Shown: positions 10,177-32,605 of the stretch, one piece after another
How positions within the stretch are numbered: the first letter of the stretch is position 1
How the letters are laid out: each line of letters starts with the position of its first letter
DNA from: Catajapyx aquilonaris
Lineage: Eukaryota
NCBI GenBank assembly: GCA_000934665.2
Contig: JYFJ02002321.1
Coordinates: 1 to 59,286 of the forward strand
Direction: 5' to 3'
Length of the DNA stretch: 59,286 nt
Notes under the pieces: generated by a model
Database searches by the model: none
What the model was told of the DNA's origin: nothing
The model's input: the letters and a program-made list of their open reading frames with translations, nothing else
Translations under genes and position numbers: made by a program

Positions 10177-11069
10177 TGTATGTTATTGACCTACCTGCCA
10201 AAAAAAATAAACAACGCGACAACAACAATAATTTCATTTTCGAACAGAGGTCTCCTTACCTTTTACAGCTTATTCACACCACACAGAAATGTACCGCAGC
10301 CGCGCGACTTGTTATATACACTTCTTGCTTCTATGACCTGTGGCCGAAGATTCTTCTGCTCCTACAGAACAGCAGCCGATGCGATGTGCACGGAACCAAG
10401 TCCTGCTGCACACTGAGCTGGGAACCGAAGAGTTTGTTTACAATCTCCTCCGTCTCCATGGACACCGTGTCTATGACGACGGAGATGTCACCGTTGCCCA
10501 CAACAACGTAAACAAACAATGTTCCACAGGCAATGTTCCAGGAGCTGTTTGAAACAAATGAACATCAGTGTGTCTCTAGCTTCCGAGGAGGCAACACCTA
10601 TACTCTTGGAGCTTTTGCCCAGTAGCTTATGAAGGAACACACCCATGAGGGTCATTATGCGGCAATTGAGCGTCATATTGCCAACAATGGGGCGACGGAA
10701 CAACTTATAGTTAGTCACCCATGTTGTTCTGTTACAAAATTATTTACAGCAGCAGCCTCTCGTGGTCGTGCGTCTTCAGGTAATGATAGGTGTTGTATTT
10801 TGAGGCTGCAACAACTTGACAACAACAATGCCTTGCTTTTTTTTAAAAAGTCGACAATTAAACTAACAATTAAGTTGGTACAGTACTGTATCTTCAAACT
10901 CCCAGATGGTCAAGAGATAGCAGCACATGTGATTAAGAACAGTTCGGTGGGACGTCCGCTCGAATGCACCCCAAAGCCCACGGATAAAGATGGCCGACAT
11001 TTTGGTGAGAGAATTCGAAGGCGTTTGGAGGTGAGGTTTTTGGCTGTTTTGTGGGCTGAATCCTTTTGA

Positions 11070-14000
11070 ATGGTGTCTGGTATGGAAGCTGCGCTGATTG
11101 AGAAGAAGGCTGGCCGCCATCTGAATGCGGAGGAGATGGACTCGGAGGTGGGTGGACAGGTAGGCAGTGATGACCAACAAGTGGACATGTGCTCTATTCC
11201 TCTTTTATTCAGGCCCAGAGTTATGGAAACCACCAGGATGCTGATGGACCTGCTCGTTCTGTTCATGTTAAACAGGAAGATGCCGGACAAGACTGGGAAC
11301 CGTCAACGTCGGAGGTGCTCAAGGTGGACGTAAAGGTGGAGCCGGATCTTGCATATGACTTACACAATGCTGATCAGGTAGGTGATATCCCAGTTGATGT
11401 AGAGTGCGGAAATAACTGAATATTTATACTCCAGAGCATACTCGACGCGAGGGTTGGACCAATGGCACGCTGCAATTTGGATGAGGTGAAGATAGAGAAG
11501 ATAGAAGAAGATGAGGAGGAAGAGAATATGAATTACGATCCACTTGAAGTTATCAATTGCATTTCGGTTCAGGTGAGTGAACCAGCTTTCCTTAAGGTGA
11601 GCAATTTGATGAGCAAAATATTCGCTGAAGCTGTAATTAACAATCGATTTTCGCCTCACACAATATTGGTTACTTGGGTTACTTACTCTCGGCGAAGCAC
11701 TTCGCTCATCAAATCGCTCACATGTAAACACACCTGTTGAATTTTGTAAAGTTTGTATGCAATTTTGAAGGGGATTTCCATGGGAGGCATGCTACCTATT
11801 ACCCGGGACAATAAATCTGCTCACTACAGCACTGTTACTTTACGGGCCTGGGTTTAGACTGGCTCCTGACTGTTTATGAAAGGCCCACATCTGCTACCCA
11901 GCAGATCCAAATAACAAGGTGACATGCAGGCGAGGACGGAACTTGAGAGGGAGGGACCGGTAAAAGAAAGGGCCTAAACACTATTTTCAAGCAGCAGCAC
12001 TAAGTGCCATAACTTAACATAAGTCCCAGTCCTCTGTATTGTAATTTGCACTTGCGCAGCAGATCATCCTGAATAATTTCTTCATATTGATATTTCTTGT
12101 TAATTTCAGGATTCCATGATAGAGCTGCACCCAGTTGAGAATGCGGCAGGAAGTAGCTGGGGGCATTTGTCAACCTCTCTGGTATCAGATGCGGATGGAA
12201 AAGAGCAGACAAATGTCAGGAATTTCCGTCAGCAACGAAGGAAGACACCCAAGCAAAACAAGGGTCATTCTTTGGCGAGCAAAAAGGTGTGTGTAACATC
12301 ACTATCATCTTGGGTGAATTAGTGTTTCGACTCACTCTTAACCTGGTCACGTATGCCATCACACTTATATATGGTGTCACATTTTTGAAAAATATGTGAT
12401 GTGGCTTTTAGGCGTACATTGGTCACCATCTTCGATTGGTCGATATGTCAAGTTCATCATGTATAAGCTAGTTCCAAGTGGATCAGGTTGAGGACACTGT
12501 TGTTATGAGTGGTGTCCTTTATGCAGTTGCTGTGACTTATTTTGGCGTGTCCTGTCGCGAAAGGGTGAGTGGTTTTTTTTTGCTTGCAGTCTCCTGCATT
12601 CCAGTGCTCGGTGCGGCTAGTATGTCCAGAGGCAGGAGCACAGGGACATGGCAAAAGCTCAGAGTCAGACACGATGAACATAGACGTCAAAGGTGTGCGA
12701 AGGGGGGAATGCAAAGATGAAGGCTGTGACTGCCCACAGTTCGATAGAGATCTAGACAAAATTTCACCATCGGAAGGCAGCCGGAGGGACTGGTGCCAAT
12801 ACTGCGGCCATCCCCCGACAAAGCACCGGAAGATTGAGGAGATCGTACCTGGTATGATTATCGCAACTTACAAATACCAATGTTCACTCAAATTTGATCA
12901 ATCCGAAAGCCATCTTATCACTGTTGTTCCAAATGATATCACATTATTCTTGCCCTTATTTTGCCAAAATATTTGCAGAAAACATTGCCCTGTCAGTCCT
13001 TGATCTGCCAAGCACTAATGTGCATGCTACATCTGATGATGCACCAGTTCTGCTTCATTCAGGAGACGTACTGCACACTCAGGAGCCATCAGCGAGTGGC
13101 CTGCAATGTAATTCAGGCCAGAAAGGAGGGCAAGAGAGCATCGTGCATGACCCGACTAACAACTTGGTAAGTATTCGTTTAGTTGCAACTCGCAGCATTT
13201 TACACACAAAAAAATTGTGGGATTGTTTGTGTGATCAGTTCAGCTGTCTGACAGTGGTCGAAAGGTTTGTGCTGTGCCTCTGGTAATCTCGTTTTTAAAC
13301 AGTGTCATTACCATTGTCTCGTACTGTAATCCGTTGCAGCTTTGTGTTGGTGACACGACATTGCACCAATTATCAGGGATAGATATGGTGCCCACCTTTT
13401 CCTCATACTTGAACCCACTGCTGTTAGGAGACGACATTGATGAAGCTACCAGAAGCGCCCTGACTCAGCGGATGAAGATGGAGATAACAAGCCACTTGAA
13501 GTAAGCCTCACCAATTTTAATTCCACTCTTTGTATTTTACCAGAATTTCTTTTTGGTTTCATCATAATAATATCAGGGATTTATTACTACAAATCTTTTT
13601 AGTAGACAGTTTTGACAAGCGGTACTTTCATATTATGATGCAATTTGGCTAAATATTTCTGTCTTTTTTTTTCTGTTGATGCTGTAGCAAGAATGACCTG
13701 ATTGTCAAAGGGTCAACTGGCGACTTGCGGTGGGAGTACAACGCTCTTGGGAGGAGCATTGCTCAAAGGTATCCACATATGCAGTGGGAGGCAGATCACA
13801 CCAAAAGTAACAATAAGAAAGGACGTGGAAATGCATGGGTGAGTTTATTAATAATATAGTCTCAATTTTCAATAAATCGCATTACACAGCCAGTCAAAAT
13901 ATGGTATTAGAATGTATTTAAGTTCATTAATAGACGCAAATGTTGAACATTTGAGATATTTTGTGTCAATTACTGTAAGACTGCATATGTCAAATTTTGT

Positions 14001-16422
14001 AACTAAATTGCGGATATTGGTGCACTTATCGTTTTCAAGAGTAAGTAATTGATTGTTGAGAAGTTTCGTAAAATAAGCAGTAAAAATAAGACTGTAGGTT
14101 AACTCTTGATTGTATTTTTAGTCAACTTTCATGCAACGCTTGGCCCAATGTAGAAGAGCACAAAGATACAGAGAGAGAGTGAAGACGACATCCAAAGAAA
14201 AAAAAGATGATGCTGCCTGCGAAGACCTAATGCCTGAATAGAGACAGGCAAATGCCGCTGCTTGTCTTTCCCTGGAGGATGCCGCCAGAAATTGAAGGTT
14301 ATTAACATGGTGTGAATATCAACCTTATAATAGACCCACTTTTCCCACACAACTGACGCTTGCTTACTCTTGAAAGTATACAAATTCCCTTCTATGCCCA
14401 GGTTCCTATTGTCCTGAAAATTTATAGTTTGCAAATGTGATACTACACTGTATGATTCTATACATGAATAGAATCCAAGGAGAGTGCAGATCAGATTGAT
14501 GAAATGGATTTGGAGCATCCCCTGCAAAATCATTTACTGCCAGTGAAAACACGCTTCATATGAGACCATGTCAACCTACTTGACGTCTGAAAAATGAGTA
14601 AGTATCACATGTTTTATGTGTATGAGGCATTTTGTAGTGATAGATTAACCTAGATATGCCTGAAAGATTTTTTGTTTAAATTTTGGTTTTTGTTTGTTTT
14701 TATTAGTTCATAATAGTCCCCAAAACACAAGAAAAATGATTGAAAAAAATTGTAAAATCGAAATTGTAAAATCGAAATCGAAATTGTAAAAAGATTGCAA
14801 GAAAAGGGCCGTCCCCTGTAGGGGACACTCGGCATATCTGGGTTAATTGACATTTTTGTAAGAGGGAAACTGTTATGATGCAGCATGTGCAGGGGCTTTT
14901 ACTAACTGTAAGTACCGGTAAGTGATTATGGATAAGTTATGTTTGGTTTGAGGATGTCATAATGAATTCACTAGCAATAGTAGATCATAAAATGTAAGCC
15001 CTTTGCAATGTAAGACAGTGAGATTTTCACTTTTTATACGACAAGATCATAATTAGTAATGGCTTCCATGTAATCTGTGAGATTATGTTACTTGAAATGG
15101 TAACCATCAACAGATTATTATTATTGAAAAGACACCCACTTTCATTATGAACCACTTTCATGTAGTGCAAAATCCCTCTAGCGAAAAAATGAATGCCATT
15201 TATTTGTCCTTTTTTCCTCAGATGGACTTCTCGAAACAGACCCCCTTCTCCTCCTAGGCCGTCCATACATCCTGGAAAAGGAAATAATAACCATTGATTC
15301 ATCGTGCCAGGTGCCCTCAGATGATGGTGGCTTTCTGAAGAAAGCTTTCATTTTGTGCCTCGGCATATATTACAGGTAAAATCTAAGCTATCCCGCCTCT
15401 TCATGATGATGAGCCTGCTTCTACTCATGTTTATCATAGTGCTCATAAATTTTCAAACCAAATGAAACATTGAATTTTTCTACAGGGTGTGTCAGAAGTC
15501 GATATCTAATATTATTTCTGAATAACTTTCCAATGGATACAGTACCTACAGGCTAGATGTGATATTTTTTGTGACTTTGTCATGTACAAATATTGTATAC
15601 ATGACAAGCAATACTTGTGTGATGATATACGTGACGGTACAGGTGATCGGAGTGACTGCGTGGCATGGTACTTGACTGTACATGCGATATTTTTACGACT
15701 TTTTCCACATATTCCATGTATGACACGTACTCCTTCATAGAAACTACAGTTATGTTGTTACTGTCATTTTCAGGGAGATCCACTTGAAGATCCTGGCATA
15801 ACGACGCGCAATGCAGATCTGGTGCAACAAGTGAAGAAGATACTTCCTGTAGGGCAGAATTTCAGCTGCCAGGTTCATCAGAAAAAAGTTACTCGTACAC
15901 CTTACTTACAAATTCACCTGAGTAAATCTTACATTTGCCTAGTCTGCCATAAGAAATTTAATTGTACAAGAAATTTGAACAACCACATGGCGATGCATAG
16001 GGGTGAAAAGCCATACAGTTGTCCTCTATGCCAAAGGAAGTTTAGACAGTCAGGTCATATGAAAAGTCACATTCAAACACACTGATGAGAAACCATTCAT
16101 CTGCGATGTATGTCAGAAATCGTTTCGCGAGAAAAGTAGTTTAAGAGTGCATGAGAGAGTGCACACAGGCGAGAGACCGTATAGTTGCGAAATTTGCAAG
16201 AAAAGTTATACTGGTGCTCGCGCTTTGAGAGTGCATCGAAGATTGCATAAAGAGGAAAGACCGTTTAGTTGCTCAATTTGCCATAAAACTTACAGGTCTA
16301 ACGGCGGGTTAAATTATCATATGAGAACGCATGCAGAGGAGCAAGCTGTCAAAGTGAGCCAGAAAATATACTTTGCTAAAAAAAATGGCATGAGAAATCA
16401 TATGAAAAAATTTGTGGCATAA
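11070..16422 (+). pseudogene. Cassette copy 1: acidic-exon C2H2 zinc finger gene with a frameshift in the finger exon
   Basis: Phase-0 exons 11070-11159, 11213-11377, 11435-11572, 12110-12286, 15774-16422. Clear paralog of the gene at 24237. Apparent 2-bp loss in ACACAC near 16080 gives CAC TGA instead of CAC ACT GAT GAG AAA CCA; fingers continue in another frame (16147-16422 ORF). Could be an assembly error. Confidence 0.75.
12333..15654 (+). mobile_element. CACTA/EnSpm-like element in intron 4, carrying a degenerate multi-exon SAMD3-like ORF
   Basis: CACTC...GAGTG termini with 3-bp ACT duplication (12330-12332, 15655-15657) and subterminal IR gtcacgtatgccatcacac/gtgtgatgatatacgtgac. Internal GT-AG exons encode CxxxxCxCxxF..CQYCGHPPTKH, EYNALGRSIAQRYPHM and AFILCLGIYYR*NLSYP. 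Absent from the paralogous intron at 25348-25746. Confidence 0.7.
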
Positions 16423-16670
16423 AATTCAGCTCCGCAACTAGTGAAGCAATAATTAGCGATGACACCTGTTTCTAATCGTGCTAATTACTACCGTATATGT
16501 AAGCAATATGGCAGGGTCTTCAGTGCAGCAAGTATGTTTGGTGGTACCCTGCAATAAAATGATAAGTAAAGATTGACTTGATTTAATGAGTCATTATTTC
16601 ATATTTTTGTGCTCCTGTGATTTTTCTTTCTTTGGGCACGAGATGGCAGGGCAGGTTCTGAACTGTTTTT

Positions 16671-16710
16671 AGCCAGCGACTCGAACGCACCGAAACAAAG
16701 ATGGCCGCTC
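16671..16710 (+). promoter_or_regulatory. Conserved cassette promoter motif (representative copy)
   Basis: gaacWgtt..GCCAGCGACTCGAACGC..AAGATGGCCG recurs upstream of each cassette ATG at ~10956, 16671, 19511, 20921, 24128, 26908 and 30677. Confidence 0.65.
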
Positions 16711-16772: not shown

Positions 16773-19129
16773 ATGGATACTAGGCGGACCACTAGGCGGA
16801 TTAAACAGGAGGTGGGTCATCCAGAGGCGGAGGACCAAGGCAGAAAGGTACGTGGACAAGTAGGCAGGCAGAAGATTCAGTTACAACCGATAATGACATG
16901 TGCTCAATTACAGTGTGCTCAAGACCAGCCTTTGGTTGATGGACGTGCTGCAGGCCAGGATGGGACAGGCGCAGATGTGGTCAAGACGGAGATCGAGACG
17001 GAAGAAGATGATGGTTATTGGGACGGCCGTGAGGAGGACCAAGAGCTAATAACTTGGATGGACTCTTTGTTGGAAAAACATACAGGTGTCCAAAGACAGG
17101 TGGGTACAAGCATTTGTGTTGCGCTAAAGTGCAGAATTCATTTCGTATTTTTTACTCCAGAGCACACGGGTCTGGAGGGCCGGACCAGTGGATGACAACG
17201 TCGCAGACTTCAAGTTGGACGATTTGGAGCTTGAGGAGGAAGATCAGTTAGTTGCGGATTCCATTTTAGCTGACAATCCAGTTCAGGTGAGTTAGCCAAC
17301 ATAACATTCTTGGGGGCTGAACTGTTGCTTTGATTTGACAATTTTGTCAAATTTGCATGCACTTTTACTGGTTGGTGACTTCCCAAGCATCTTCACGATG
17401 TTGTTAGCATACAAGAGAAATCCATTAAGTCCAGTCTGGACTGTTTTGAGTAATTTACTCCACATAGGGCCAGTTGCACTATAAAAAAATTCATATTAAT
17501 GTGCATGTCTAGCCTTGTTATTAATCATTGCAACAATTAACTGGCAATTAATAACAAGGGTATGCCTATGCCTGGACCTGTAGTATGTACCGTACACCCT
17601 TGTATTCTTCTACATGTATTTTTCCGGAAATTTGATGAAGAGTGATATTTTTAATGAATAATAATCCGCGGACTGCCCGGATTACCTATCGTTACCTGAT
17701 CAAAATGACCCTGTGACCCATTTTTGAGGGGGGCAGAGGCCAAGTCATAAAATTCCGACCTCACCGATTTTCTTGAAATTCGGTGCATTGGTAGCCCACC
17801 CCAAGGGATGAAAACGCACCTATAATTACCTGCTCGAAATTGACCCACATATGTCAATGCACCGAATTTCAAGATAAATCGGTGAGGTCGGAATTTCACC
17901 TCTGCCCCCCCTCCAATATGGGTCGCAGGGTCATTTTGTTCAAGTAACTACAGGGCGGCGTTTTTCATCCCTTGGGGTGGGCTACCAATGCACCGAATTT
18001 CAAGAAAATCGGTGAGGTCGGAATTTTATGACTTGGCCTCTGCCCCCCTCAAAAATGGGTCACAGGGTCATTTTGATCAGGTAACGATAGGTAATCCGGG
18101 CAGTCCGCGGAATTATTCATTAAAAATATCACTCTTCATCAAATTTCCGGAAAAGGGGAAAAAGAACTCAGGCTAAGGCAATGGCTCAAAAACTCCGTCG
18201 TCAAAAGGTTAAAAAAAGGATGTCTTTAGGACATCAATATATACACAAGTCGAACATCAATGGAAGCATCTTTGCATAAAATAATGGTTAACTATTCATA
18301 CTGTGCGGAAAACGAAACGACGATCTGACGTCATCGTCACACAACAATATGAGTAAACAGTTGTCAACAAAAGGAACATTGTTTACTTCCTATTGTTGCA
18401 TGAGAACAAAACGATGAGGTCGGATTGTCGTTTTGTTTACCGTAATGTAATTTTAATTTTTTTTAATGATCTTTTGATTGAAATTCTATCCCCACAATAT
18501 GTCTTCCGAGGACTGCAATGAAGGGTCAGTGCCACATTTCATCTAGTCTAATCTCTAGCCTTTTCATCCAGGTTATGGAGGCAGTGGAAGACATCACAGT
18601 TCCAGGTCCCTCTGGTGCAGGTGATGGAACCAATCCGACAGGTGCTGTGAATGAGAGAAACACGAGGGGAAAGAAACAAACAGTTGGAGAAATGCTGATG
18701 GAGTTTCAAGTGAAGATACGTAAGTTTAAGGAGATGTATGAGAAGAAGATGGATGAGCAGGCGGGACGCCACATTGATAGGGTAGTGGATGCGGATGTAC
18801 TCTTCAAGGAGAAGATAGGGGATCTGTCAACCGACTTGGGTAAGAATCAGCGGAAGCAGATTAAGATATTCGAATTGAAGATGCAGCGGCAGAAGAGACT
18901 ATTCAAAAGAAAGCTGCTGCAGGAAAAGATTTCCTTCACGGGTGAGATGAAGAAGCGATTGACATACTTGATCAATTGGAAGAAGGAGCAGGAGAAATTA
19001 TTCAAGGCTCATGTGCAGAAGCAGGATGAATGCTTCCTGGCGAGGAGGCATGCGCTTGTGGAGCTGTTCAAGGAGCAGCTGGAAGAACGGAACAAGCGAT
19101 GCAAGAAGAAGCAGCTGAAAAAGCGATGA
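16773..19129 (+). CDS. Cassette copy 2: acidic N-terminal exons spliced to a basic coiled-coil exon (predicted 318 aa, no zinc fingers)
   Basis: Phase-0 exons 16773-16859, 16914-17099, 17161-17286 and 18572-19129 (acceptor ttttcatccag) read through without stops. The last exon is K/E/Q/R-rich and heptad-like. Confidence 0.65.
17620..18154. mobile_element. Foldback element with ~200-bp near-identical inverted arms
   Basis: ttccggaaatttgatgaagagtgatatttttaatgaataa...ggtagcccaccccaagggatgaaaa repeated in reverse complement at ~17960-18154. Confidence 0.85.
18305..18443. repeat. Degenerate inverted repeat (MITE-like)
   Basis: aaacgaaacgacgatctgacgtcatcg..aacaata..agtaaaca / tgtttact..tattgtt..cgatgaggtcggattgtcgttttgttt. 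Confidence 0.5.
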
Positions 19130-19611
19130 GGCTGCATGTCAAATGATGTCTGCAGTATTTGATAATAAACGTTCTCATGTGAGCAGTTACTCAATGGCTT
19201 TTGTTTTCCAATAATACCACAAGTACTGGTACAGTAAAAAAATGCAGATAATCAACAAAAATCATCCCTATGGAATGATTTGATATGTCCTCTCCGAGGT
19301 TCTCTCAAAATGATTTGCAAGCGACACAGCGATCCCGACAAGAGTATCCTCTGGTTATTTAATTCACAGCTGCTTCGTCAGTGTACGAGGTGAAGCATAT
19401 TGTAAGGAAACACAGTTATTAAATGTTATTAGTAATGTTATTAATATCAATAAATTTTTTTTAGCACTTGTTGCTCTTGGGACATTTCTTTCAAATGTGG
19501 ACAACAGTTTAGCCAGCGACCGGAACGCACCGCAACAATGAATGCCGCTCTCTTCTGGTGATAGCGTCTGATTTGTTTGCTTCTAGTTGAAAGACTTGTG
19601 TTGGGATCAGG

Positions 19612-22507: not shown

Positions 22508-23827
22508 ATCAATTATCCTTATAGAGAGCCTTGGGAGCCCGTTCGTAAGTCAGTCGGGTTGTTCGTAAACTGGGGGCTTCTTGTATTACATTCTGTGGTA
22601 AAGAATGAATTCCCATGTGACATTTCAAATAGTTTGACTGACTAAAACTTTTCTGGCACACCTAACAAATGAATGGATTTTCTCCCGTATGAGTTTGCAT
22701 GTGTTTCTTCAAAGCCTCTGAACGTCTAAAACTTTTCTGACACACCTCACAAATGAATGGCATTTCTCCCGTATGGATTCGCATGTGTTTCTTCTTAGCC
22801 TCTGAACGTCTAAAACTTTTCTGACACACCTCACAAACGAATGGCTTTTCTCCCGTATGAATTCGCATGTGCAGTTTCAAACTGCATGGATCCCTGACAC
22901 CTTTCTGGCACACGTCACAAATGAATGGCTTTTCTCCCGTATGAGTTCGCATGTGCTTTTTCAACGTCCCTGAACTACTAAAACTCTTCTGACACACCTC
23001 ACATACAAATGAATGGCTTTTCTCCCGTATGTGTTCGCATGTGGGTTTTCAAACTGCCTGAATGGCTCAATCTCTTCTGGCATACCTCACAATGAAATGG
23101 TCTCTCTGCGGTATGACTTCGCATGTGACATTTCAAATGGTTTGACTTATTAAAACTTTTCTGGCAAACATCACAAATGAATTGATTTTCTCCAGTATGA
23201 ATTCGCATGTGCTGTTTCAAACAACTTTGAGTAAGAAATTTGTTCTTGCACACCTCACAGTGAAATGGTCTCTCTCCTGTATGAGTTAGCATGTGAATTT
23301 TCAAATAATTTGTACGCTGCAATGTCTTCAGGCAAATATGGCAACGATGCTTTTCACTGTGAATTTCCAATTCATGCAGAGTACCACACAATTTCTGGCA
23401 TACTCTGCATGCATGTGGATTTCCTGTAGTGCTTCTTTTGTCCTGGGTTCCGCCCTTTCCTACTCCATCGTCAGCAGTCTGTTGCACAATCTGAAACGTG
23501 AATCATCAGTGCACAATTTATATGGCAATTACATCATGATTACATTAATCCTTCTGGATCCAGTTGCTAATGGGTCGTCTTCATCTTTGACCACAGTGGA
23601 TGTTGCCACCACCATCTCTTCCTCCTCCTCCGCGGCCTCCTCCTTGATCTCACGCAGCGTGTCTTCTGTGAAGAGTGTAGCGTCCCCGTGGAAGCATGCC
23701 GGGGTCTCCTCCTTGAGTCGCAGCCTCCAGGTCTCCTCCACCGTCACGTCTCCTTCCTCCAGCTCTCCTCCACCGTCACGTCTCCTTCCTCCAGCTCCTC
23801 CTCCTTCTTCACCACCAACGAGGTCAT
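22508..23827 (-). pseudogene. C2H2 zinc finger pseudogene (acidic first exon + ~9-finger exon)
   Basis: Exon 1 23827-23544 (MTSLVVKKEEE..IKEE..VKDEDDPLA) is broken by a 32-bp tandem duplication (23732-23795). The finger exon from 23490 has HTGEKPF-type linkers, a 4-nt insertion near 23003 and an in-frame TAG at 22662-22664. Confidence 0.85.
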
Positions 23828-24236
23828 GGCCCTGCAGGTCACTCAGTCACCAACGTTGGAGGGTCTGCCAAGAGGTACATTCAGATGTGCCCTACACTTC
23901 AAAACAAAGGCCTACTCTTGACTCTCACACATGAGCCGTCCTTTGACAGTACTGAGCAAGTGAGCATGCCCTGTACATCAACCCTAGTTACCTGTACTCA
24001 CCCTAGTGTAATTATACGTCTCATACACTTTAAAATTTGAAGATTCCAGAGCGTTCCAGAGCATGTGGGACTCATCACATATTATGGCGACAGATGGCAG
24101 CACTGGACGTTAAGAACTGTTCTCAATGCCAGCCGCTCGAACGGGCCCTGAGAAAATTAATCGAAGAAGATGGCCGTCAACTTCAGGAAATAAATCTGCG
24201 ATTTTTGGTGGTCATTTGTGCTTGTTTTCCGATCGA

Positions 24237-26682
24237 ATGGCTTCGAGGGTGGTCCAGATGGAAGCTGCGACGGATGGGCAGATGGACTCCCTCCATCTGG
24301 AGACGGTGGGTGGCCTACAAGGTCGGAAGATGGTCTGATCGATATTATATTTGCTCCATTTCTCTCAATTTATTCAGGGCCAGCCTCTGAGTGATGGACC
24401 ACTTCATGTTTATGTTAAAGAGGAAGCTGCTGGACAAGACTGGGAACCGTCCACTTCGGAGGTGCTGAAGGTGGAAGTAAAGGTGGAGCCGGACCTTTCA
24501 TTTCATTGCGATCAGTTCGACGTACACGGTGGGGATCATGTAGGTGATCAACCAGTTGCGCTAGAGCGCAAGGGCATTAATTGAATATTCATACTCTAGA
24601 CCACACCAGAGCTTGACAAGAGTGTCGGACCATTCAAGTTGGATGAGGTGAAGATAGAGGCGGCTGAGGAGGAAGAGGATGTGAATTACGATCCACTTGA
24701 AGTTATCAATTGCATTTCGGTTGGAAATGCAGTTCAAGTGAGTGAACCGCTGTGTTGATCTAATAATGCTGTCAAATTTCATCGGTTTTTACTTACTCGT
24801 AACTCTTGTTGTTCATTATAATTATGTGCACATGGCTTGAGAGGACTGTCATTGACATACCATTTGCACTACATGGGCACGGCCCTTTAAAAATGATCCA
24901 CGGATCATTTTTAAAGGGCCGTGCCCAAAACTGCAGTTTTTCCGTGTGTTAAGTGGCAGTGTTTTGAGTGTAGTTCGTTGGTTTAATGTAATTTTGATGC
25001 CACCTTCAGCAGTGCAAGCCTAGTGGCTGACACATAATTCGTGTTCCGGGAGTGATCACATTCATCTCTATCTCCTCCCTTGTGCAGTTGACCATTATGA
25101 ATGGGTTTTTTTCATGTCGATGTTGTTCCTCATTCCGTAACAGGGATATAATCTTTCCTCTTAATTTTAGGATTCCATGATAGAGCCGCATGTAATTGAG
25201 AGTATGGCTGGAGATAGCTGGGGGCATTTGTCAACCTCTCTGGTATCAGAAGTGGATGAAGAGGAGCAGATGCATGTCAGGAACTTTCTGATGCAACCGA
25301 GGGACACACTCAAACCTGACAAAAGTGACTCCTTGGCAAGTGAAAAGGTGGGTGTAGTGTCATTATAATGTTAGCTGAATAAGTGTATGGGTATAATGTA
25401 TGACGAGCAATGATTTTCATTGAGTATGAAGTACACATGCTGTACGCATGATTCCCCATCATAATATGGTTCAACCGGATTTTATATTTGTGAAATGCTG
25501 TATAGATTTAACCCTGTACCGCACGTTGTGACCCTCATCCATCATTATGGAGTGGTCCTAGTGCACTTGTGCAGGTAATGAACCCAACTGATTTGATTTG
25601 TACATTACATGTAGAGTTTACTGCACAATTATTCATTGATGAGCATCTGTTACTGTTCTAATCTTTTAAGTACTTTCCATTACAAGAGAGGTGAACAATG
25701 TCATTTACTTGAGGAAACTGAAGTTATGTTTTAATTGATCTTTCAGGGAGAGCCACGGAAACCTGATGACATCAATACGCAGAATTCAGACCTGGTGCAA
25801 AGAATCAGGAAGATACTTCCTGAAGGGCATCAGTTTAGTTGTGAAGTTCTTCGTAAAAAATCTAGTCATACACCTTTTTTCCAAATTTATGTGAAAGAAA
25901 AATGCAAAAAAGCCCACTTTTGCGACGTCTGCCATAAAGAATTTAAATCTGCACATAATATGAAACAACATGTGAAAGTTCACACGGGCGAGAAACCATA
26001 TAGTTGCCCAATATGCCAGAGAACATTTACTCACTCGAGTCATGTGAAAAGACACCTACAAACGCACTCAGCGGAGAAACCATTCGGTTGTGATATGTGC
26101 CAGAAATCTTTTCGCGAAGAAAGTAGTTTGAGATTGCATGTGAAAGTACACACAGGCAACAAGCCATATGTTTGCAAAATTTGCAATAAAAGTTACACCC
26201 ACAGAAGTGGTTTATCTGTGCACCGGAGAATGCACACAGGTGAGAAACCTTTCAGTTGCGAATACTGCTTTAAAAAGTTCCCATTGTCAAGTAATTTGAA
26301 AACGCACATTATGAGTATGCACACTAAAACAAAACCTTACAGTTGCCAACTTTGCCCTAGGAAGTTCGCCACACTAGGTTCATTGAATTCTCACATTAAA
26401 GATCACAATGGAGTTAAACGATTCACCTGTGAACATTGCCTGAAGAAGTTCAGCCTTCCAGGTCTTCTGAGAGCTCATATGAGAACTCACACTGAAGAAA
26501 AGCCATTTCATTGCACGGTTTGCGATGAAAGGTTCATTCGTGAAATCAACTTAAATTGGCACATGAACAAGCACACGGGGAAAATGACGTTTAACTGCCA
26601 CGATTGCCATAAAAAGTTTGCTTCCCTCAATTCGTTGGAAGATCACAGACGAATACATCTTGAGGAGAAATTGAGCGTATAG
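24237..26682 (+). CDS. Cassette copy 5: intact acidic-exon C2H2 zinc finger protein, 9 fingers, predicted 493 aa
   Basis: Phase-0 exons 24237-24305, 24378-24539, 24600-24737, 25171-25347, 25747-26682; no stops; HTGEKP-type linkers. Confidence 0.88.
24874..24927. repeat. Perfect 26-bp-arm palindrome in intron
   Basis: tgggcacggccctttaaaaatgatcc-ac-ggatcatttttaaagggccgtgccca. Confidence 0.9.
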
Positions 26683-27007
26683 GCAATTCACGGAGAGCGT
26701 TACGACGTATAAAACGTATTGTAAGGAAATTGTGATTATTAAATGCTAAAATGTATAAATAATGGGTCCACATTTTTGTGCCATTATTTCCCCACTATTT
26801 CAGCAATATATTGTGCACATTATTGTTACAATAATAAAAGTCATTTATTGTAGGTGTGACAACAATGGAACTGTAATGCAGGGAATACAGTAGAACAGTT
26901 CTTTGAGAGCCAGCGACTCGAACGCGTCCCAAACAGCTGAGCAAAAATGGCCGCCTTTTGAGTAGGAAGCAGCCTTTTTGTGGTACTTTCCTCTGGTTGA
27001 TTTGGAC

Positions 27008-27808
27008 ATGGATGCTGGACCGGTGCAGGAGGATGGCCTGATCCATCCGGATGAGATGAAGATTGAAATCAAGATTGAGGAGGAGGAGGAAATGTATGAT
27101 TATGATCAGCTGGGCGGTGCGGCTGAATCAGGTGATCAAGATCAGGTGAGATTGTCTCTTGCGCTGAAGATTGACTGTCATAATTAATTAAAATTTTTTT
27201 GCTCTAGGCCATTCAAGATCATGATCAGATGAACCTGTCACCAGCACGCAGCGGGACGGACTCGGAGTTAGACGAGGTGAAGATTGAGGTTACGGAAGAG
27301 GAGGAAGAGCAGATATTTGCTGATCCTCTGAATGTTGATTACAGCAGTTTAACAAGTGATCAAGTTCAGGTGAGTGCATCACCATAACCCTGGAACCGTG
27401 ACGTGGGGTCTTTTAAAGGAATTAAAGTGCAATGATAATTACAATGAATTTTTGCCGTTTAAAAAAGTATATAACAGGAAGTGCATATTTATTTTGAATT
27501 AGCGATCATTTTAGGCATTGTTCAAAGAATAATTGCAAATAGTGTATTTGATAACTGATGCCGATTAGATCAAATTGTGAGCCACCACAGATAAGTCCAT
27601 TTGAGCTTATGATGTGTGTATGATGAAGGGACCATAGGTTACCATAATTACTAATAGCCTTGCTCAAAATTGTTTCAGATTTTAACACCACCGCTATCAA
27701 ATGTCGTTGATTAACTCTAATTCACATTTAAGGGTGTGCAACATGAATCTGGTGAGGGTTTGAAGAAGGCAGTCCCTGTGCAAGAAAGGAGGAAGTCAGC
27801 TAAACGAG
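27008..27808 (+). CDS. Cassette copy 6: acidic exons and start of the former zinc finger exon (finger array lost)
   Basis: Exons 27008-27145, 27208-27369 and from 27733, co-linear with copy 7 (30803). The finger exon is interrupted by a hairpin at ~27842 and truncated after EKCFSCPVCQE at ~28005. Confidence 0.7.
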
Positions 27809-27841
27809 GTAATTTGAGGAAAGGCCTGCAGACATGCACAG

Positions 27842-27966
27842 CGCTGCCGTCGGATGTAAGAAGAACGTAACTCGAAAACTTTGAAGGGTGAATGTCGCAT
27901 GGCATGAATGCGACTTTCACCCCTTTTAGTTTTTGAGTTACGGTCTTCTTACATCTGACGGCAGGG
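27842..27966. mobile_element. ~125-bp hairpin insertion in the first zinc finger linker
   Basis: ctgccgtcggatgtaagaagaacgtaactcgaaaac / gtttttgagttacggtcttcttacatctgacggcag arms. Removal restores ACA GCG GAG AAG TGC TTC, matching ACA GTG GAG AAG CGC TTT in copy 7. Confidence 0.8.
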
Positions 27967-28005
27967 CGGAGAAGTGCTTCAGTTGCCCTGTTTGTCAGGA
28001 AAACG

Positions 28006-30540
28006 AGGTGAAATTGTGCCACTGTTGTTTTATGTCATTTCATTGATTTTCATGTGTTGCAGTGACGGGAAGAGTTTACCAGAAGAAGATCGATGGGAGG
28101 CCTTATAAAAACTGGTCAGAAGACACTTTAGAACTGGCTTTAGAAGAAATCAAGGCTAAAAAGATCTCGCTTCGGGAAGCAGCGGTTAAGTAAGTGCAGG
28201 TTAAATGCTTTCCTTTTTGTTTTGACTTACAAAATATGAGCATGTTTGTTATGTATTTCGATTGTAGTGTAACATTTGCCACTTCTTCTGTAGTGTTTAT
28301 GTGACCAATTTGGTGTCTTTTCTCCAGATATGGAATCCACCGAAATACTCTAAACAACAGACTACATGGGCGATGTACAAGGAAGACAGGTGGGCAGACA
28401 GCACTTTCAGCTGACGAGGAGAAGATAATTGTGTCACATGTGATCACATTATCAACTTTCGGCTTCCCTGTTACTGCTCTTGATCTGCGCTTATTCATAA
28501 AATCTTACCTTACAAGGATAGATCGTACAGTAAAACAGTTTAACAACAACTTACCTGGAAAGGAATGGGCTACTCTGTTTCTCAAGAGGCATGAAAAAGA
28601 ATTAACCGCTAGAGTGCCTCAGGTCATTTCGCGCTCACGAGCTGCTCTTGATAGCACATATATCGATGACTTTTTTGATGTTATTGTGAAGGAGCTTGAG
28701 GGAATCCCCCCTGATAACATTTGGAACTATGATGAGTCCAATCTTCAGGACAATCCTGGCTTAAAGAAATTTATAGTGAAGAGGGGTGTTAAACATCCTG
28801 AAATGATAAAAAACTCCACAAAAGTGTCAATGTCCGTCATGATGTGTGGGAATGCAGCAGGAAGTTTGGCTCCCCTTTACGTTACCTATCAGGCAGAGAG
28901 TTTGTACAACTGCTGGATGGAAGGCGGGCCTCCGGGAACACGTTATAACCGATCAAGAAGCGGTTGGTTTGACGCTGCAGTGTTTGAAGATTGGTTTGAG
29001 TTCCTATTGCTGCCGATTTTGAAGAAACAGACCGGCCAAAAGGTGTTGGTCGGGGACAATCTAAGCTCCCACCTTAACTATCATGTGATTTCCCTTTGCC
29101 ATGAGAATAACGTAAAGTTTATAGCCCTTCCACCTCACTCAACGTGTTTGCAACCACTGGGTGTGGCCTTTTCTCGCCACATGAAAGGGGCATGGAAGTC
29201 TATTTTGACACGATGGAAGAAAACAGACGAAGGAATTAAAAAGCCGACCCTTCCCAAGACTGTATTCCCTCGTTTGCTAAATGATTTGATGGTGAAGTTG
29301 CTAGACAGAAGTTCTGCAAATTTGATATATGGATTCCAAACTTGTGGAATTTATCCGCAGGATCGAACAGTTATTCAAAATAAACTGTGCAACAGTGTCA
29401 GTGAATCATCAGGTAACCACGTTCAAAATGTAAGTGAGGCTTTTTTGGATGAAATGAGCAGAAAAACCTGCTCAACACTAGGGAGGAAAAGGAAAAAAGT
29501 GAATGTGCCGCCAGGTAAAGGCATTACAGCCGAAGATGTAGCACCACTATCATCTGAACAATCTCAACCCTCCACTTCGAAGAAGAGCAACTCTAAAAAA
29601 CATCCACCGACAGGAAAAGACACTAGGAAGAAGAAAAAGCATTTGAACCACTTTGAAGACTTTTCAGATGATGAGTTTGAGTTCCCATGTGCGGATGTGG
29701 GTGCACTAATGAATTTCCTGCAAGATGACGTTGGGGATCCACCAGCAGTTGAGAATGGATAACACCTCCAACCCATGAGTGCCATTGAAGAACTTAAACC
29801 AAACCATGGCCAACAGGAATGAACCAACTTACCAGTGGAGCAAGGACTGATGGACAGTGATATCGGTATTACCGAAGAACCAACAGTTGCTGTCTAATAT
29901 GGCGGATGTTTGTACAGTATTCAGGAAATTTTTTGACAATATTGGATGAGACAGGTGAGGCCAACTATTTCGGACGGACACACACACAAAAAAAGGGAAA
30001 ATACATAAAAGATCTAGTGAAAAGGAATATAATTCCATTTTTAAAAAGTGGTAGTAACGTCCTCATAGTAGGCATGAACCCAGCATGAACCATTAGATTT
30101 CAAAGTTTTGCTGACTTTTTTGCATTTAATTTTTACCCATGTAGCCATCTTCATAGGTTTCCACAATTTCTATTGCCTTCAGTTAGTAGCATTGTTAATA
30201 TTTCGTTTCAAATTGTTGTCAGTTCCTATATTTTGTTCTCGTACCATTGTCCGTTCCGTAAAGGTTGTTAAAAGTTTATTTCATTGTTGATTCCTTAATA
30301 AAATTAAATGAAGTGTCTTGAATTATTATCATTGTCGTACCGGTCGTACTACCTATCCTCAATATTTTAAAACAATATTTTTTTCTTCTTCGTATTTTTC
30401 TTTAACAATTTTTTTTTCATGCTGATGATGCTCATTTTTTCTACAGGAAGACTGGTGAGAATGTGCCAAAAACGCAATTTCTCTTCATTTCAAGCTAGTC
30501 TGGCACAATCTCACCCCACTCGATGGGATGATGTGCTACA
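28006..30540 (+). mobile_element. Truncated pogo-like transposon body
   Basis: Subterminal-type motif gtga(a/g)a(t/a)tgtgcca at ~28008 and ~30455, and inverted (tggcacaatctcac) at 30501; TA|CAGGAAGACTGGTGAGAATGTGCCA end-like fragment at ~30444. No intact TIR pair found, so boundaries are approximate. Confidence 0.55.
28063..29762 (+). CDS. pogo/Tigger-family (HTH_psq + CENP-B HTH + DDE_1) transposase, own start lost, catalytic Asp mutated
   Basis: Exon 28063-28189 (ACG in place of ATG, GRVYQKK..YKNWSEDTLELALEEIKAKKISLREAAVK); intron GTAAGT..TCTCCAG; exon 28328-29762 (YGIHRNTL, FGFP, PGKEW, WNYDES, LVGDNLSSH, and LQPLGVAF where QPLDV is expected). Confidence 0.9.
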
Positions 30541-30802
30541 AAGAAAATAATGTCTCCCCTCTCTTTAGCATGTAATACATCTTTATTTGAAAAAATATAT
30601 ACAGTGTTTCGTTTATTCAAATAATTACCTACTGTATCGGAGAATACGGTAGATTTCACTGTGAACTGTTCATTCTGCCAGCGACTCGAACGCACCCCCA
30701 AACAGCTGAGCAAAGATGGCCGCCGTCTCCTCTTTGGAGTGAGATCATCTTAGCCGCTTTTGTCGTCTTCTCCTGGTTGATTGCGGTTGAGTGTGATCGG
30801 AC

Positions 30803-32605
30803 ATGGATGCTGAGCCGGTGCAGGAGGATGCCTTGCTTCATCCGAAAGCGGAAATCAAGATGGAGGAGGAAGAACTGTATGATTATGATCAGCTGGGCCT
30901 AGGAGGTGGAACTGAATCAGATGATCAAGATCAGGTGGGACTGTCTGTTGCGCTGAAGAGCTGCAATTATTGAGTGTCATAAATTTTTTATTCTAGCCCA
31001 TGCAAAGTCATGATCTGATGCTACCGTCACCAGCACACAGCGGGACGGACTTAGATGAGGTGAAGATTGAAGTTCGGGAAGAGGAGGAAGAGCTGATATG
31101 TGATGATCCGCTGAATGTTGACTATTGTAATCAGGTTCAGGTGAGTGCATCACAAGGAGAAGGGGAAGAGAGAAGGAGTCGTAAAGGACTTGGGTCACTG
31201 TAATGCCTTTTGAGAAATCAGTATGTTATGAAATTATGCCATATATTCAATTTGACAGAAAGTTGTTGTACAGTACCTGATACATCAAATTTCTGGAGAT
31301 TAAAAAGGGAGCATGGTGGCCATTTTAAAAATGTGACCATAAAGTAGCATAATAATTGCTGAGGCACATCATTTACCGCCAAAAGCGAAAACACAGTAAC
31401 TCCGTAGAAAAGGAGTGAGACTAAAGCTGCGTTTACATGTGAGCAATTTGACGAGTGAAATCTTCGCCGAGGCTGATTTTCGCCTCAAATTGGCTGAGAT
31501 TTTGCTCGTCAAATCGCTCACATGTAAATAGAGCTTTAGTCTCATTGCTTGCCTATGGAGTTACTCTCTTTCGCTTTTTGCGGCAGACATGTACTCGTCT
31601 GTTCAATGTATCCCGGAGTCCTAATGAACTCCCCTCCTTGTGCTGGGGCACGGCACTGACCTTGGTTCCCAGCCATGAATCATCATTTAACACTGCCTGT
31701 ATCAAAATGTCAATGATGAGCTTCGATTCATCTTTAAGGGTGCACAACAGCAAGCTGATGAGAATTTGAAGAAGACAGTCCATGTGCAAATAAGCAGGAG
31801 AGAGTCTACTCAGCCAGATAATTTGAAGGAAGGTCTGCAGCCACACACAGTGGAGAAGCGCTTTAAAAAATGTAGTCAAGCATGTGAAGTTGAAATTCAT
31901 ATGATAACACATGCTGCGGAAAAACCATTTAGTTGTCATTATTGCCAGGAAAAATTTAACCAGGAAGGTGATATGAAAACTCACATGAGGACGCACACTG
32001 AGGAAAAACCATTTAGTTGCCCTCTTTGCAATAAAAAATTTAGTCGACCACACGATGTTAAAATTCATATGAGAACGCATACTGGGGAAAAACCATATAG
32101 TTGTTATATTTGTCAGAAGAAATTTAGCCACACTGGTAATATGAATATCCACATGAAAACACATACTGGGGAAAAGCCATTTAGTTGTCACTTTTGCCGG
32201 AAAAAATTTATCCAGGAGGCTCACATGAAAGCTCACCTGACGACGCACACTGGGGAAAAACCGTATAGTTGTCATTTTTGCCAGAAAAGATTTAGTCAAG
32301 AAAAAGGTGTTAAAACTCACCTGAGAACCCACACTGGGGAAAAACCATATAGTTGTCACCTTTGCAATAAAAAATTTAGCCAGATTGGTCATGTGAAATC
32401 TCACCTGAAGATACATACTGGGGAAAAACCATTTAGTTGTCATGTTTGCCAGAAAAGATTTACTGAAGAAAATAGTATTAAGACTCACATGAGAACCCAT
32501 ACTGGAGAAAAACCATATACTTGTCACCTTTGCAATAAAAAATTTAGCCAGCTAGGTCATGCGAAAGCTCACCTGAAGACACATACTGAGGAAAAAAACA
32601 TGTAG
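30803..32605 (+). CDS. Cassette copy 7: intact acidic-exon C2H2 zinc finger protein, 8 fingers, predicted 380 aa
   Basis: Phase-0 exons 30803-30934, 30997-31140, 31739-32605; highly homogeneous HTGEKP(F/Y)SCHxC repeats. Confidence 0.9.
31425..31535. mobile_element. Harbinger-like MITE in intron (related copy at ~11597-11735)
   Basis: agctgcgtttacatgtgagcaatttgacgag / ctcgtcaaatcgctcacatgtaaatagagct termini, flanked by TAA/TTA. Confidence 0.7.

Follow-up and report, generated by a model that had tools for sequence, protein, structure and literature searches.

A tandem cluster of C2H2 zinc-finger genes with an acidic N-terminal cassette, probably shaped by birth-and-death evolution

In KRAB zinc-finger clusters, effector exons are followed by a single array exon; the clusters grow in tandem and contain frameshifted and partial copies. 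ZAD, also an N-terminal module of C2H2 proteins, is a fold in which four cysteines bind zinc. In cyprinid fish, the available text of Wells et al. (2023; PMC10547256) describes FiNZ as a short acidic N-terminal sequence without similarity to known domains, encoded as 28 residues on an exon of its own upstream of the zinc-finger-array exon, with a repressive role shown by knock-down. Fusions of host genes with transposases, KRABINER and POGK among them, are described in the available portion of Cosby et al. (bioRxiv 10.1101/2020.05.07.082677).

The stretch of DNA analysed here (the window; 59,286 nucleotides) contains seven plus-strand units, which start near positions 10959, 16680, 19520, 20930, 24136, 26917 and 30685. 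Common to them are an upstream box of 40-50 bp and two to four short acidic exons with AG/GT borders, an arrangement that the original prediction had described and that is indeed present. Sequence comparison suggests, with reasonable probability, that the units are a tandem birth-and-death cluster of one lineage-specific C2H2 zinc-finger transcription-factor subfamily, in an animal whose genome has short introns. Three parts would have made up the ancestral gene. A conserved box of ~45 bp would have stood directly before the coding exons. The N-terminal region, disordered and acidic, would have been spread over two to four short phase-0 exons, with two to four psi-K-x-E lysines, putative SUMO-acceptor sites of the NDSM type, ahead of acidic runs. 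A single terminal exon would have carried both linker and finger array. The groups (1,5), (2,3,4) and (6,7) would then have arisen by local duplication, with some events taking the 5' end only. Copies 5 and 7 would be the intact members, copy 1 and a minus-strand member freshly frameshifted, copies 3 and 4 decaying pieces of 5' ends, copy 6 a gene that breaks off in its first finger beside a dead pogo transposase, and copy 2 an intact cassette without an array. The sequences other than zinc fingers that lie downstream would be neighbours, not captured payloads. The shared anatomy and its SIGNIFICANCE were counted in favour of birth-and-death evolution.

The C2H2 arrays expected at copies 1, 5 and 7 are all present, and those of copies 5 and 7 are intact. 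Copy 5 (24237..26682, plus strand) has exons E2 (24237-24305), E3 (24378-24539), E4 (24600-24737) and E5 (25171-25347), followed by a zinc-finger exon (25747-26682) with nine zf-C2H2 stretches; copy 7 (30803..32605, plus strand) has two cassette exons (30803-30934, with the ATG, and 30997-31140) and a zinc-finger exon (31739-32605). All junctions in both gene models are phase 0, and both genes are presumably expressed. In copy 1 (plus strand) the array is frameshifted. Its first coding cassette exon (11082..11147; ATG at 11082 or 11070) ends in a phase 0 donor and is followed by E3 (11213..11377; 55 aa, with VKQE and VKVE), E4 (11435..11572; 46 aa, DEVKIE..EEEE..DPL) and E5 (12110..12286; 59 aa), which has a counterpart in copy 5 only. 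The zinc-finger exon (15774..16422) has lost 2 bp that copy 5 keeps; as a result it encodes two fingers and then meets a stop at 16085, and three further fingers are open in another frame (16063-16422). An eighth, divergent member lies on the minus strand (22662..23846), where an acidic N-terminus bearing VKKE, LKEE, IKEE, VKDE and DPL precedes a C2H2 array. Two changes break this member: ~31 nt are duplicated in the N-terminal part, and 4 bp are inserted within the array. The frameshifts in this member and in copy 1 could be assembly errors.

Self-BLASTN joins copies 1 and 5 over 11260-11569 and 24407-24722 (75%), 12090-12325 and 25151-25386 (76%), and 15740-16211 and 25714-26198 (71%). Copy 3 (19508-19844) matches copy 2 (16668-16997) at 77%, and a slightly longer stretch of it (19508-19856) matches copy 4 (20918-21306) at 79%. 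Copies 6 and 7 are joined over 26909-27382 and 30677-31153 (74%), and again over 27681-27841 and 31686-31850 (75%).

Only decaying 5' ends are left of copies 3 and 4, which cannot be working members. Copy 3 (19508..19905, plus strand) has a degenerate box, an open E2 (19612-19674) and an E3 (19761-19905) of 145 nt with a TGA. Copy 4 (20918..21361, plus strand) has E2 (21053-21115), E3 (21206-21361) and an E4 remnant (acceptor near 21454) with a stop at the fourth codon. Both boxes have lost their ATGG core, neither copy has a last cassette exon that could be used, E4 being degenerate, and between them the intron is as similar (0.91) as the exons (0.90 and 0.86). The payloads assigned to these copies fare no better. 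An insertion of ~400 nt in intron 3 of copy 3 (19906..20320, plus strand), with a T9/A10 run at its end, houses a 147-aa ORF that had been called 'Gag-like'; searches of Pfam (best E 0.086, to an unrelated family), PDB (none) and the Atlas (none) lend that identity no support. Behind copy 4, the proposed mini-exon (21650..21682, plus strand) does contain PLDLS, at 21667. Across the six frames of the window the pattern P[LIVM]DL[ST] has a single occurrence, with 0.52 expected, which is chance level, and the identity of this payload fails as well.

The original prediction had gone further and proposed a gene nursery with swapped C-termini, which does not stand in that form. As an alternative to birth and death, the promoter and cassette would be a reusable effector module that captures C-terminal exons, and the chimeras at copies 2 and 6 would be real, expressed genes. 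We regard this as doubtful: two of the four non-zinc-finger payloads, those of copies 3 and 4, follow decayed cassettes in copies that cannot be working members, their identities fail, and copy 6 is a truncated zinc-finger gene. The case for capture is made by copies 2 and 6 themselves.

The three cassette exons of copy 2 (E2 16773-16847, E3 16914-17099, E4 17161-17286; plus strand) are intact, open and phase 0, and the DEVKIE site of E4 is without its lysine. A 535-bp palindrome 3' of E4 (17620..18154; 85% over 556 columns) is a foldback or MITE-like element. Further downstream lies an ORF (18572..19129, plus strand; stop 19127-29) for which no relatives were found. Its product is basic (pI 9.9), as had been proposed, and mostly helical, and its acceptor at 18570-71 is phase 0 like the donor of E4; a poly(A) signal (AATAAA ~37 nt after the stop) also suits capture. 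Against this, the ORF has its own ATG at 18575, one codon past the acceptor and in good context, which, with the AATAAA, weakens its claim to be an exon of copy 2, and a TGACGTCA palindrome lies ~250 nt upstream; the ORF may belong to a gene of its own.

In copy 6, the two cassette exons (27008-27145, with the ATG, and 27208-27369; plus strand) are likewise open and phase 0. They are followed by a zinc-finger exon remnant (27733..27870, plus strand) of 45 codons and a stop, homologous to 31686-31850 of copy 7 (75%) and interrupted by a 157-bp palindrome (27826..27982), beyond which a remnant of the first finger (EKCFSCPVCQENE) can be recognized. The pogo-type transposase gene (28063..29762, plus strand) comprises exon A (28063-28189), encoding the first half of the HTH, and, across an intron, exon B (28328-29762; DDE_1). 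It has no start codon, with GTG at the position of its relatives' start Met, and a splice acceptor (tgtgttgcag) ends at 28062, directly before the frame. The third catalytic Asp, invariant in 120/120 relatives listed, is replaced by Gly; no terminal inverted repeats were found; and of 118 columns with conservation of 85% or more, the transposase departs from its relatives at 17, the median relative at six. Copy 6 is best described as a truncated zinc-finger gene adjoining a disabled transposase gene.

If capture were correct, copy 6 would be a host-transposase fusion comparable to the tetrapod KRAB-transposase genes, for which the published fusions (available portion of bioRxiv 10.1101/2020.05.07.082677) offer a precedent. 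Consistent with this, the cassette is intact, with pN lower than pS relative to copy 7 (see below), the acceptor immediately precedes the start-less frame, and the transposase is open over exons A and B in spite of its missing Asp and terminal inverted repeats. A parallel is seen in a stink bug relative of the transposase, which bears an acidic N-terminal extension of its own, not related to the cassette; it contains IKKE and VKHE and is joined just upstream of the usual transposase start. The splice paths stand in the way. A DDE_1 ORF does follow copy 6 as predicted, yet joining the phase-0 cassette donor directly to the transposase acceptor gives an immediate TGA, and use of the remnant-exon acceptor gives a stop after 45 codons, so that a fusion needs a cryptic donor, as yet unproven. 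Arithmetic alone gives two candidates within the remnant exon, after 27751 and 27808, whose phase 1 would keep the junction in frame. The excess of changes at conserved positions in the transposase also argues against capture. Nevertheless, two features sit uneasily with birth-and-death evolution. The cassette exons of copies 2 and 6 are still open and in frame and have good splice sites, which is unexpected for old neutral debris, and the transposase frame runs for 532 codons without a stop despite its changed conserved sites. Copy 6 and the transposase might represent a young or nascent host-transposase fusion, which would be a side issue beside birth-and-death evolution of the cluster.

Both readings so far take the cassette exons as coding, and their anatomy bears on this. 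Phase 0 at both ends, with a length that is a multiple of three, is found in 18 of 19 cassette exons, although borders were placed by the analyst at AG/GT beside open frames, which favours such calls; the uniformity that had been claimed is broken by E3 of copy 3 (145 nt, in-frame TGA). DPL, which had been noted before, occupies one homologous position in copies 1, 5, 6 and 7, within the last cassette exon, and no cassette exon has more than two cysteines. It could be supposed that the exons are a non-coding leader or enhancer, conserved as such, whose frames and motifs are by-products of purine-rich sequence. The plus strand of the region is indeed purine-rich, no protein relatives of the cassette were found, and only one of five pairs has a dN/dS clearly below 1, the other four giving 0.67 for copies 1/5 (p 0.25), 0.50 for 2/3 (p 0.22), 0.43 for 3/4 (p 0.08) and 1.46 for 2/4 (p 0.41) over the short exons. 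As these values are mostly indistinguishable from 1, constraint on the cassette is weakly shown. We nonetheless hold a non-coding role to be very improbable. Eight homologous exon pairs (four of copies 1/5, two of 6/7, two of 2/4) differ in length only by multiples of three, six of them by non-zero amounts (3, 3, 6, 18, 12 and 30 nt), whereas introns and leaders differ otherwise (65/72, 66/90, 91/118). The AG/GT borders, phase continuity into the long C2H2 frames of copies 5 and 7, and a pN (0.121) lower than pS (0.296) between copies 6 and 7 (Fisher p 0.0025) speak for coding, as does the motif content.

In 17 exons with 689 residues in all, psi-K-x-E is found 18 times, against 0.96 in within-exon shuffles (~19-fold; 18 reached in 0/5000), although the counts are not independent because the copies are related by descent. 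The richness seen earlier is thus confirmed. These sites contain 18 of the 32 cassette lysines, and 17 of the 18 are followed by at least two acidic residues within the next eight. Such motifs fit SUMO acceptor sites with acidic surroundings, and the region may act as an effector that is SUMOylated and recruits co-repressors. An AlphaFold2 model (pLDDT 63.8, pTM 0.17, one 4-residue helix) predicts that the cassette is disordered. In agreement with the claim that it is neither KRAB nor ZAD, Pfam holds no family for eight cassette stretches at E up to 1; nor did a profile search of 1.84 billion representative proteins return any credible relative, the two hits being chance repeat proteins. The cassette is not unique in kind, since acidic, psi-K-x-E-rich N-termini on separate exons are common in other non-KRAB zinc-finger proteins: 40 of 113 generic matches listed have at least three such motifs before the first finger.

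That the units are copies of a mobile element, with the cassette part of a transposon gene, is hardly credible at all: homology between copies begins sharply at the box and stops at the last cassette donor, with flanks at 0.59-0.72, the level of unrelated sequence (control mean 0.57-0.62, maximum 0.74), and transposon fragments are frequent in the region, but the seven units share a strand and fit into 20 kb, pairs share longer blocks that include a further exon and the start of the zinc-finger exon, no terminal repeats flank the units, the window holds no tRNA or Rfam family that would indicate a SINE, and cassette profiles match none of 120 listed relatives of the neighbouring transposase (best E 0.075), which marks the cassette as host sequence.

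The upstream box is found at 10959..10998 in copy 1 (CTCGAATGCACC ... AAAGATGGCCG), 16668..16710 in copy 2, 24124..24176 in copy 5, 26905..26955 in copy 6 and 30673..30725 in copy 7, all on the plus strand. The 12-mer CTCGAAYGSRCC, with up to one mismatch allowed, marks six of seven unit starts and one unrelated site (47185) in the whole window (seven matches against 0.79 expected; seven reached in 0/100 shuffles), while copy 3 has a degenerate form. AGATGGCCG is exact in four of seven units (0.24 expected), and an alignment of all seven boxes has 21 invariant columns. The box may act as a core promoter. Its 3' half, AAAGATGGCCGC or a close variant, resembles the TISU/YY1 core-promoter element, which the accessible text of PMC9658832 prints as SAASATGGCGGC. 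Five of seven units agree with the printed element at 9-10 of 12 positions and contain an ATG, whereas position 10 is C in all units and G in the element. The ATG of the box opens only an upstream ORF of 4-14 codons and not the main frame; TISU is defined in mammals.

How, then, does a birth-and-death cluster of this kind compare with the known systems? Like KRAB clusters, it combines effector exons with an array exon, tandem duplication and broken copies; it differs in lacking a KRAB match and in its predicted disorder, where KRAB is a folded box. Arthropod ZAD genes share a lineage-expanded N-terminal module on C2H2 proteins, whereas the cassette exons have no ZAD match, at most two cysteines each and predicted disorder. 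With KRABINER and POGK, as far as the available text describes them, copy 6 shares effector exons upstream of a same-strand transposase ORF with an acceptor directly before it, and a transposase that has lost what transposition needs. In contrast to them, the splice path that suggests itself in copy 6 either leaves the frame or stops, and the whole transposase, DDE core included, is kept, with the zinc-finger array gone. Around the cluster, a minus-strand gene 2 kb upstream (8311-9141) has a sub-threshold ZAD match (25.7 bits against a cut-off of 28), and the window also contains a single-exon Lig_chan gene. These neighbours and the short introns give no hint of a fish, the home of FiNZ. When the two main exons of copy 1 were compared by phmmer with 120 zinc-finger matches listed, a cyprinid protein included, the best E was 0.073, so that no sequence similarity was detected; the cyprinid protein begins with four psi-K-x-E motifs in 86 residues (IKEE, MKIE, VKQE, LKEE). 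In the available text FiNZ is 28 residues on one exon, compared with two to four exons of 21-62 residues each in the cassette. By analogy, FiNZ is nevertheless the described counterpart of the cassette, and the cluster is comparable to the FiNZ genes: as far as that text goes, both have an acidic N-terminal module encoded apart from a single finger-array exon, and both form large or tandem lineage-specific families.

This locus is best explained as a cluster in which one lineage-specific subfamily of zinc-finger (ZNF) genes has evolved by birth and death. Seven units on the plus strand, copies 1 to 7, start at about 10959, 16680, 19520, 20930, 24136, 26917 and 30685, each with an upstream box (a shared motif of 40-50 bp) and a cassette of short acidic exons (E2, E3 and E4); the eighth member, at 22662-23846 on the minus strand, is divergent. 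As far as is known, new repressors in animals, which often act against transposons, evolve mainly from ZNF genes that lie in clusters and have a lineage-specific N-terminal module (KRAB, ZAD or FiNZ). To our knowledge, the effector modules of such genes are poorly catalogued outside tetrapods, insects and cyprinid fish. The original prediction of seven boxed units with phase-0 acidic exons carrying psi-K-x-E motifs was largely right as an observation. Its interpretation, in which one cassette is joined to swapped C-terminal payloads, stands only in part: the payloads of copies 3 and 4 fail, and copy 6 is a ZNF gene that has been truncated and adjoins a dead transposase.

Reading of the sequence and tabulation of borders across the seven copies gave 19 cassette exons with AG/GT borders. 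In 18 of these the length is a multiple of three and they are therefore in phase 0 at both ends; E3 of copy 3 is 145 nt long and contains an in-frame TGA. Introns within the cluster measure 57-90 nt. The exons are acidic, with aspartate and glutamate making up 16-31% of residues, and hold 0-2 cysteines each. The psi-K-x-E motif occurs 18 times in 689 residues against 0.96 by within-exon shuffling, a count that none of 5000 shuffles reaches, although these are not independent events, the copies being related. Eighteen of the 32 cassette lysines sit in such motifs, which recur at corresponding positions in every one of the three subgroups of copies while the residues around them vary. At least two acidic residues fall within the next eight positions in 17 of the 18 motifs, and at least five in nine. 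The abstract of PMC5727262 defines the NDSM as psi-K-x-E/D followed by an acidic stretch, and on sequence the cassette motifs fit this definition as putative SUMO acceptor sites. The minus-strand member carries VKKE, LKEE, IKEE and VKDE, with DPL, ahead of its finger array.

Across eight pairs of homologous exons every length difference is a multiple of three, six of them being non-zero, unlike introns and leaders, which differ in length freely. The dN/dS ratio, estimated by the Nei-Gojobori method for five pairs of copies, is 0.35 for copies 6 and 7 (pN 0.121 against pS 0.296; Fisher p 0.0025), 0.43 for 3 and 4 (p 0.08), 0.50 for 2 and 3 (p 0.22), 0.67 for 1 and 5 (p 0.25) and 1.46 for 2 and 4 (p 0.41). 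Because of this set of values the case for purifying selection on the cassette is a modest one, and it applies to a pair as a whole, its two members not being separable by such a ratio.

The core of the box is AAGATGGCC, and alignment of all seven copies gives 21 invariant columns with the consensus GCCAGCGACTCGAACGCACC...AACAAAGATGGCCGC. With at most one mismatch, the pattern CTCGAAYGSRCC has seven matches in the window, where 0.79 are expected. Six of these are unit starts and the seventh is an unrelated site at 47185; the box of copy 3 is a weaker version that the pattern misses. The sequence AGATGGCCG is exact in four units against 0.24 expected. The position of the box, its conservation and the loss of its ATGG core in two decayed copies, 3 and 4, suggest that it has a promoter function. 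The TISU / YY1 element SAASATGGCGGC, taken in the form printed in PMC9658832, agrees with the 3' half of the box at 9-10 of 12 positions in copies 1, 2, 5, 6 and 7; TISU acts in both transcription and translation, according to that paper. Assuming no splice within the frame, the ATG of the box opens an upstream frame of only 4-14 codons in six of the seven units. An origin of the box from a tRNA or SINE, raised by its B-box-like reverse complement, was dropped, as the window holds no tRNA genes and no Rfam family. Copy 5 and the minus-strand pseudogene are arranged head to head, with some 400 nt separating their starts, and the interval between them (23870-24180) holds further GCCAT/ATGGC cores; it may be a bidirectional promoter.

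Self-comparison and a repeat finder place the copies in three groups. In copies 1 and 5 the shared sequence comprises the cassette, an additional exon of 59 residues (12110-12286 and 25171-25347) and the beginning of the finger exon. Copies 2, 3 and 4 share the box together with E2 and E3. In copies 6 and 7 the homology covers the box, the two cassette exons and about 160 nt at the start of the finger exon. Identity in the flanks of the shared blocks is 0.59-0.72, the level of unrelated DNA (control means 0.57-0.62, maximum 0.74). Copies 5 and 7 give unbroken gene models ending in about nine fingers. Copy 1 has, relative to copy 5, a 2-bp deletion at about 16070, in a finger linker, which leads to a stop after two fingers; a different frame remains open across three further ones. 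In the minus-strand gene a duplication of ~31 nt shifts the frame within the N-terminus, and 4 bp are inserted into the array.

Copies 3 and 4, of the second group, are decayed. Intron 3 of copy 3 contains an insertion of ~400 nt ending in a T/A run, and E4 is degenerate; the open frame in this insertion, which had been called Gag-like, has no detectable relative in Pfam, PDB sequences or the Atlas. The E4 remnant of copy 4 has a stop at its fourth codon. The PLDLS motif that had been proposed as its payload lies 290 nt past this remnant and is found once in the window against 0.52 expected, a chance level. Between copies 3 and 4 the similarity of the intron (0.91) is as high as that of the exons (0.90 and 0.86), as expected of neutral copies.

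Other features lie in and around these units. The 3.4-kb intron of copy 1 holds a 144-codon frame (12569-13003, plus strand) with a Cys/His-rich stretch, CKDEGCDCPQFD ... WCQYCGHPPTKH; its only match, to DUF7576, is weak (E 0.015), and copy 5 lacks a counterpart. A small palindromic element has a shared 19-nt end at 11710-11728, 31432-31450 / 31510-31528 and 57571-57589, four sites where 0.02 are expected. The element is complete at 31376-31583, within the final intron of copy 7, and is present as a half in intron 4 of copy 1. G+C content across the window is 36-47%. On the minus strand, an unbroken 652-codon frame at 5016-6974 (Lig_chan, 39.6 bits) is a single-exon ionotropic-receptor-like gene, and a 276-codon frame at 8311-9141 combines a sub-threshold ZAD (25.7 bits against a cut-off of 28) with a C2H2 finger; the latter gene belongs to a different ZNF subfamily adjoining the cluster, a hint that the genome is arthropod-like. 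A copine gene, with C2 and Copine domains, lies at 38390-40740 on the plus strand. There are three caspase-domain frames, and the two loci that hold such frames, at 45846-47087 and 51499-51930, both on the minus strand, look like paralogues. With this gene content and the short introns of the cluster, the window belongs to an animal genome, probably not that of a vertebrate. The window ends in a dense A/T-rich simple and inverted repeat (59066-59271).

The cassette of copy 6 (27008-27369) has two intact exons, with in-frame indels of 6 and 18 nt relative to copy 7. The acceptor of its finger exon is conserved (27733), and homology of the frame with copy 7 extends over ~36 codons before the frame enters a 157-bp palindrome (27826-27982, ~80%) and a stop. 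A remnant of the first finger lies 3' of the palindrome, with no fingers beyond. Further 3' are the two exons of a pogo-type transposase, A (28063-28189) and B (28328-29762), which scores 58.2 bits for Pfam DDE_1 (cut-off 22) and has 447 relatives with E values no higher than 1e-5, of which the best is 60% identical; named relatives are mostly from insects, with Hydra and a tunicate too. At the position of the start methionine of the relatives the window has GTG, and the intron splits the HTH where the models of two unnamed relatives begin. Of three Asp columns, those at 143 and 251 are kept, and at column 286 the window has Gly where 120 of the 120 listed relatives have Asp. Invariance and spacing suggest that these three columns are the catalytic triad, and that of the window copy would thus be incomplete. 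At 118 columns conserved to at least 85% it has 17 mismatches, 11 of them in the DDE core; the median of the 120 listed relatives is six and only three of these reach 17. No convincing pair of terminal inverted repeats was found for the pogo copy. A 15-nt pair with one mismatch (28007-28021 / 30501-30515) was rejected, as by a rough estimate ~0.25 would be expected by chance in 3.4 kb, and it is without a flanking TA duplication.

It might be supposed that the cassette is part of the transposon's own gene, yet none of the 120 listed transposase relatives matches the cassette profiles. Copy 6 is arranged like a host-transposase fusion gene, in that host exons precede the transposase exon in the same orientation and an acceptor lies immediately before the transposase frame. 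This acceptor, tgtgttgcag, ends at 28062, one base inside the first codon of the transposase frame (frame from 28063). As a matter of arithmetic, which says nothing of use, joining the phase-0 donor of the cassette to this acceptor reads TGA, and two phase-1 GT sites in the remnant exon (after 27751 and after 27808) would join the transposase in frame. The anatomy of copy 6 matches the route to host-transposase fusions laid out in a preprint (10.1101/2020.05.07.082677). A stink-bug pogo transposase model (listed as P0125), of 654 residues, begins with an acidic extension of 99 residues that contains IKKE and VKHE. This unrelated extension is attached a little ahead of the usual start of the transposase, at the same spot as the putative junction in copy 6; the model is possibly an independent fusion of the same type.

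The three cassette exons of copy 2 are open, and the lysine of the conserved DEVKIE site has been lost. They are followed by a 535-bp palindrome (17620-18154, 85%) and then by a 186-codon basic ORF (pI 9.9), mostly helical and with a phase-0 acceptor. The ORF has its own ATG one codon past the acceptor, AATAAA beyond its stop and a TGACGTCA palindrome ~250 nt upstream. It has no Pfam match; its best Atlas score, 0.82, is in the range of shuffled sequences, and a single-sequence model (pLDDT 58.7) is too weak for a fold search. The 535-bp and 157-bp palindromes sit exactly where copies 2 and 6 lose the downstream parts of the gene, and foldback elements may have been involved in these truncations.

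A more ambitious reading takes the cassette to be the effector module of an undescribed invertebrate ZNF subfamily and copy 6 to be a young host-transposase fusion; we consider the two together rather improbable. The cassette would then be functionally analogous to KRAB and FiNZ, recruiting co-repressors in a SUMO-dependent manner. In copy 6, a catalytically dead pogo transposase would have been captured by splicing from a cryptic donor within what is left of the finger exon to an acceptor supplied by the transposon, and copy 2 may be a second capture. Were this reading true, the route to KRAB-transposase genes would be shown outside vertebrates. Expression of the cassette-transposase arrangement of copy 6 would offer a rare view of a transposase being captured; without expression, the locus is an ordinary gene cluster, of value mainly as the seed for a genome-wide cassette profile. 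The window is a clean, compact example of another lineage-specific N-terminal ZNF module, with a conserved promoter-side box, a strikingly regular grammar of putative SUMO sites and all stages of gene birth and death together.

The cassette had been proposed to be independent of KRAB and ZAD, and database comparison agrees. Pfam returned no family at E up to 1 for eight cassette stretches (from copies 1, 2, 4, 5, 6 and 7 and the minus-strand member). A search of 1.84 billion representatives with a profile built from five E4-type exons had two hits at E up to 0.001; both are long, internally repetitive proteins matched over 5-9 short stretches and were judged to be chance. A word-based search with one exon (E3 of copy 1) against longer proteins found no relative. 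The zinc-finger exon of copy 5 matches 763 proteins at E up to 1e-10, and identity is 31-45% among the 120 listed, which include neither a close orthologue nor an annotated model from the same species. None of these 120 generic ZNF proteins matches the cassette as represented by E3 and E4 of copy 1.

KRAB-ZNF genes are defined by an N-terminal KRAB box (PF01352), which Pfam does not find in the eight cassette stretches. The ZAD of ZAD-ZNF genes is a cysteine-coordinated zinc-binding fold, whereas the cassette is poor in cysteine, has no match to zf-AD (PF07776) and no predicted fold: an AlphaFold2 model from a five-sequence alignment of the last cassette exon has a pLDDT of 63.8, a pTM of 0.17 and a single four-residue helix. 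In this model the cassette behaves as a disordered region with short motifs rather than a folded domain. According to PMC10547256, the FiNZ sequence is N-terminal, short and acidic, has an exon to itself and resembles no known domain. Repression of transposable elements in the early embryo is also characteristic of FiNZ-ZNF genes. As in FiNZ-ZNF genes, the models of copies 5 and 7 have an acidic N-terminus on exons apart from a single finger-array exon. Similarity in sequence was not detected by phmmer with E3 and E4 of copy 1 alone against the 120 listed ZNF hits (best E 0.073), which include a cyprinid protein with a FiNZ-like start. Among these hits 113 have at least 40 residues ahead of the first finger, and 40 of the 113 N-termini have at least three psi-K-x-E motifs; the median is 0.5 per 100 residues, compared with 2.6 in the window cassettes and 4.7 in the cyprinid protein. 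The cassette is best read as a new, non-homologous version of an already known kind of N-terminal module.
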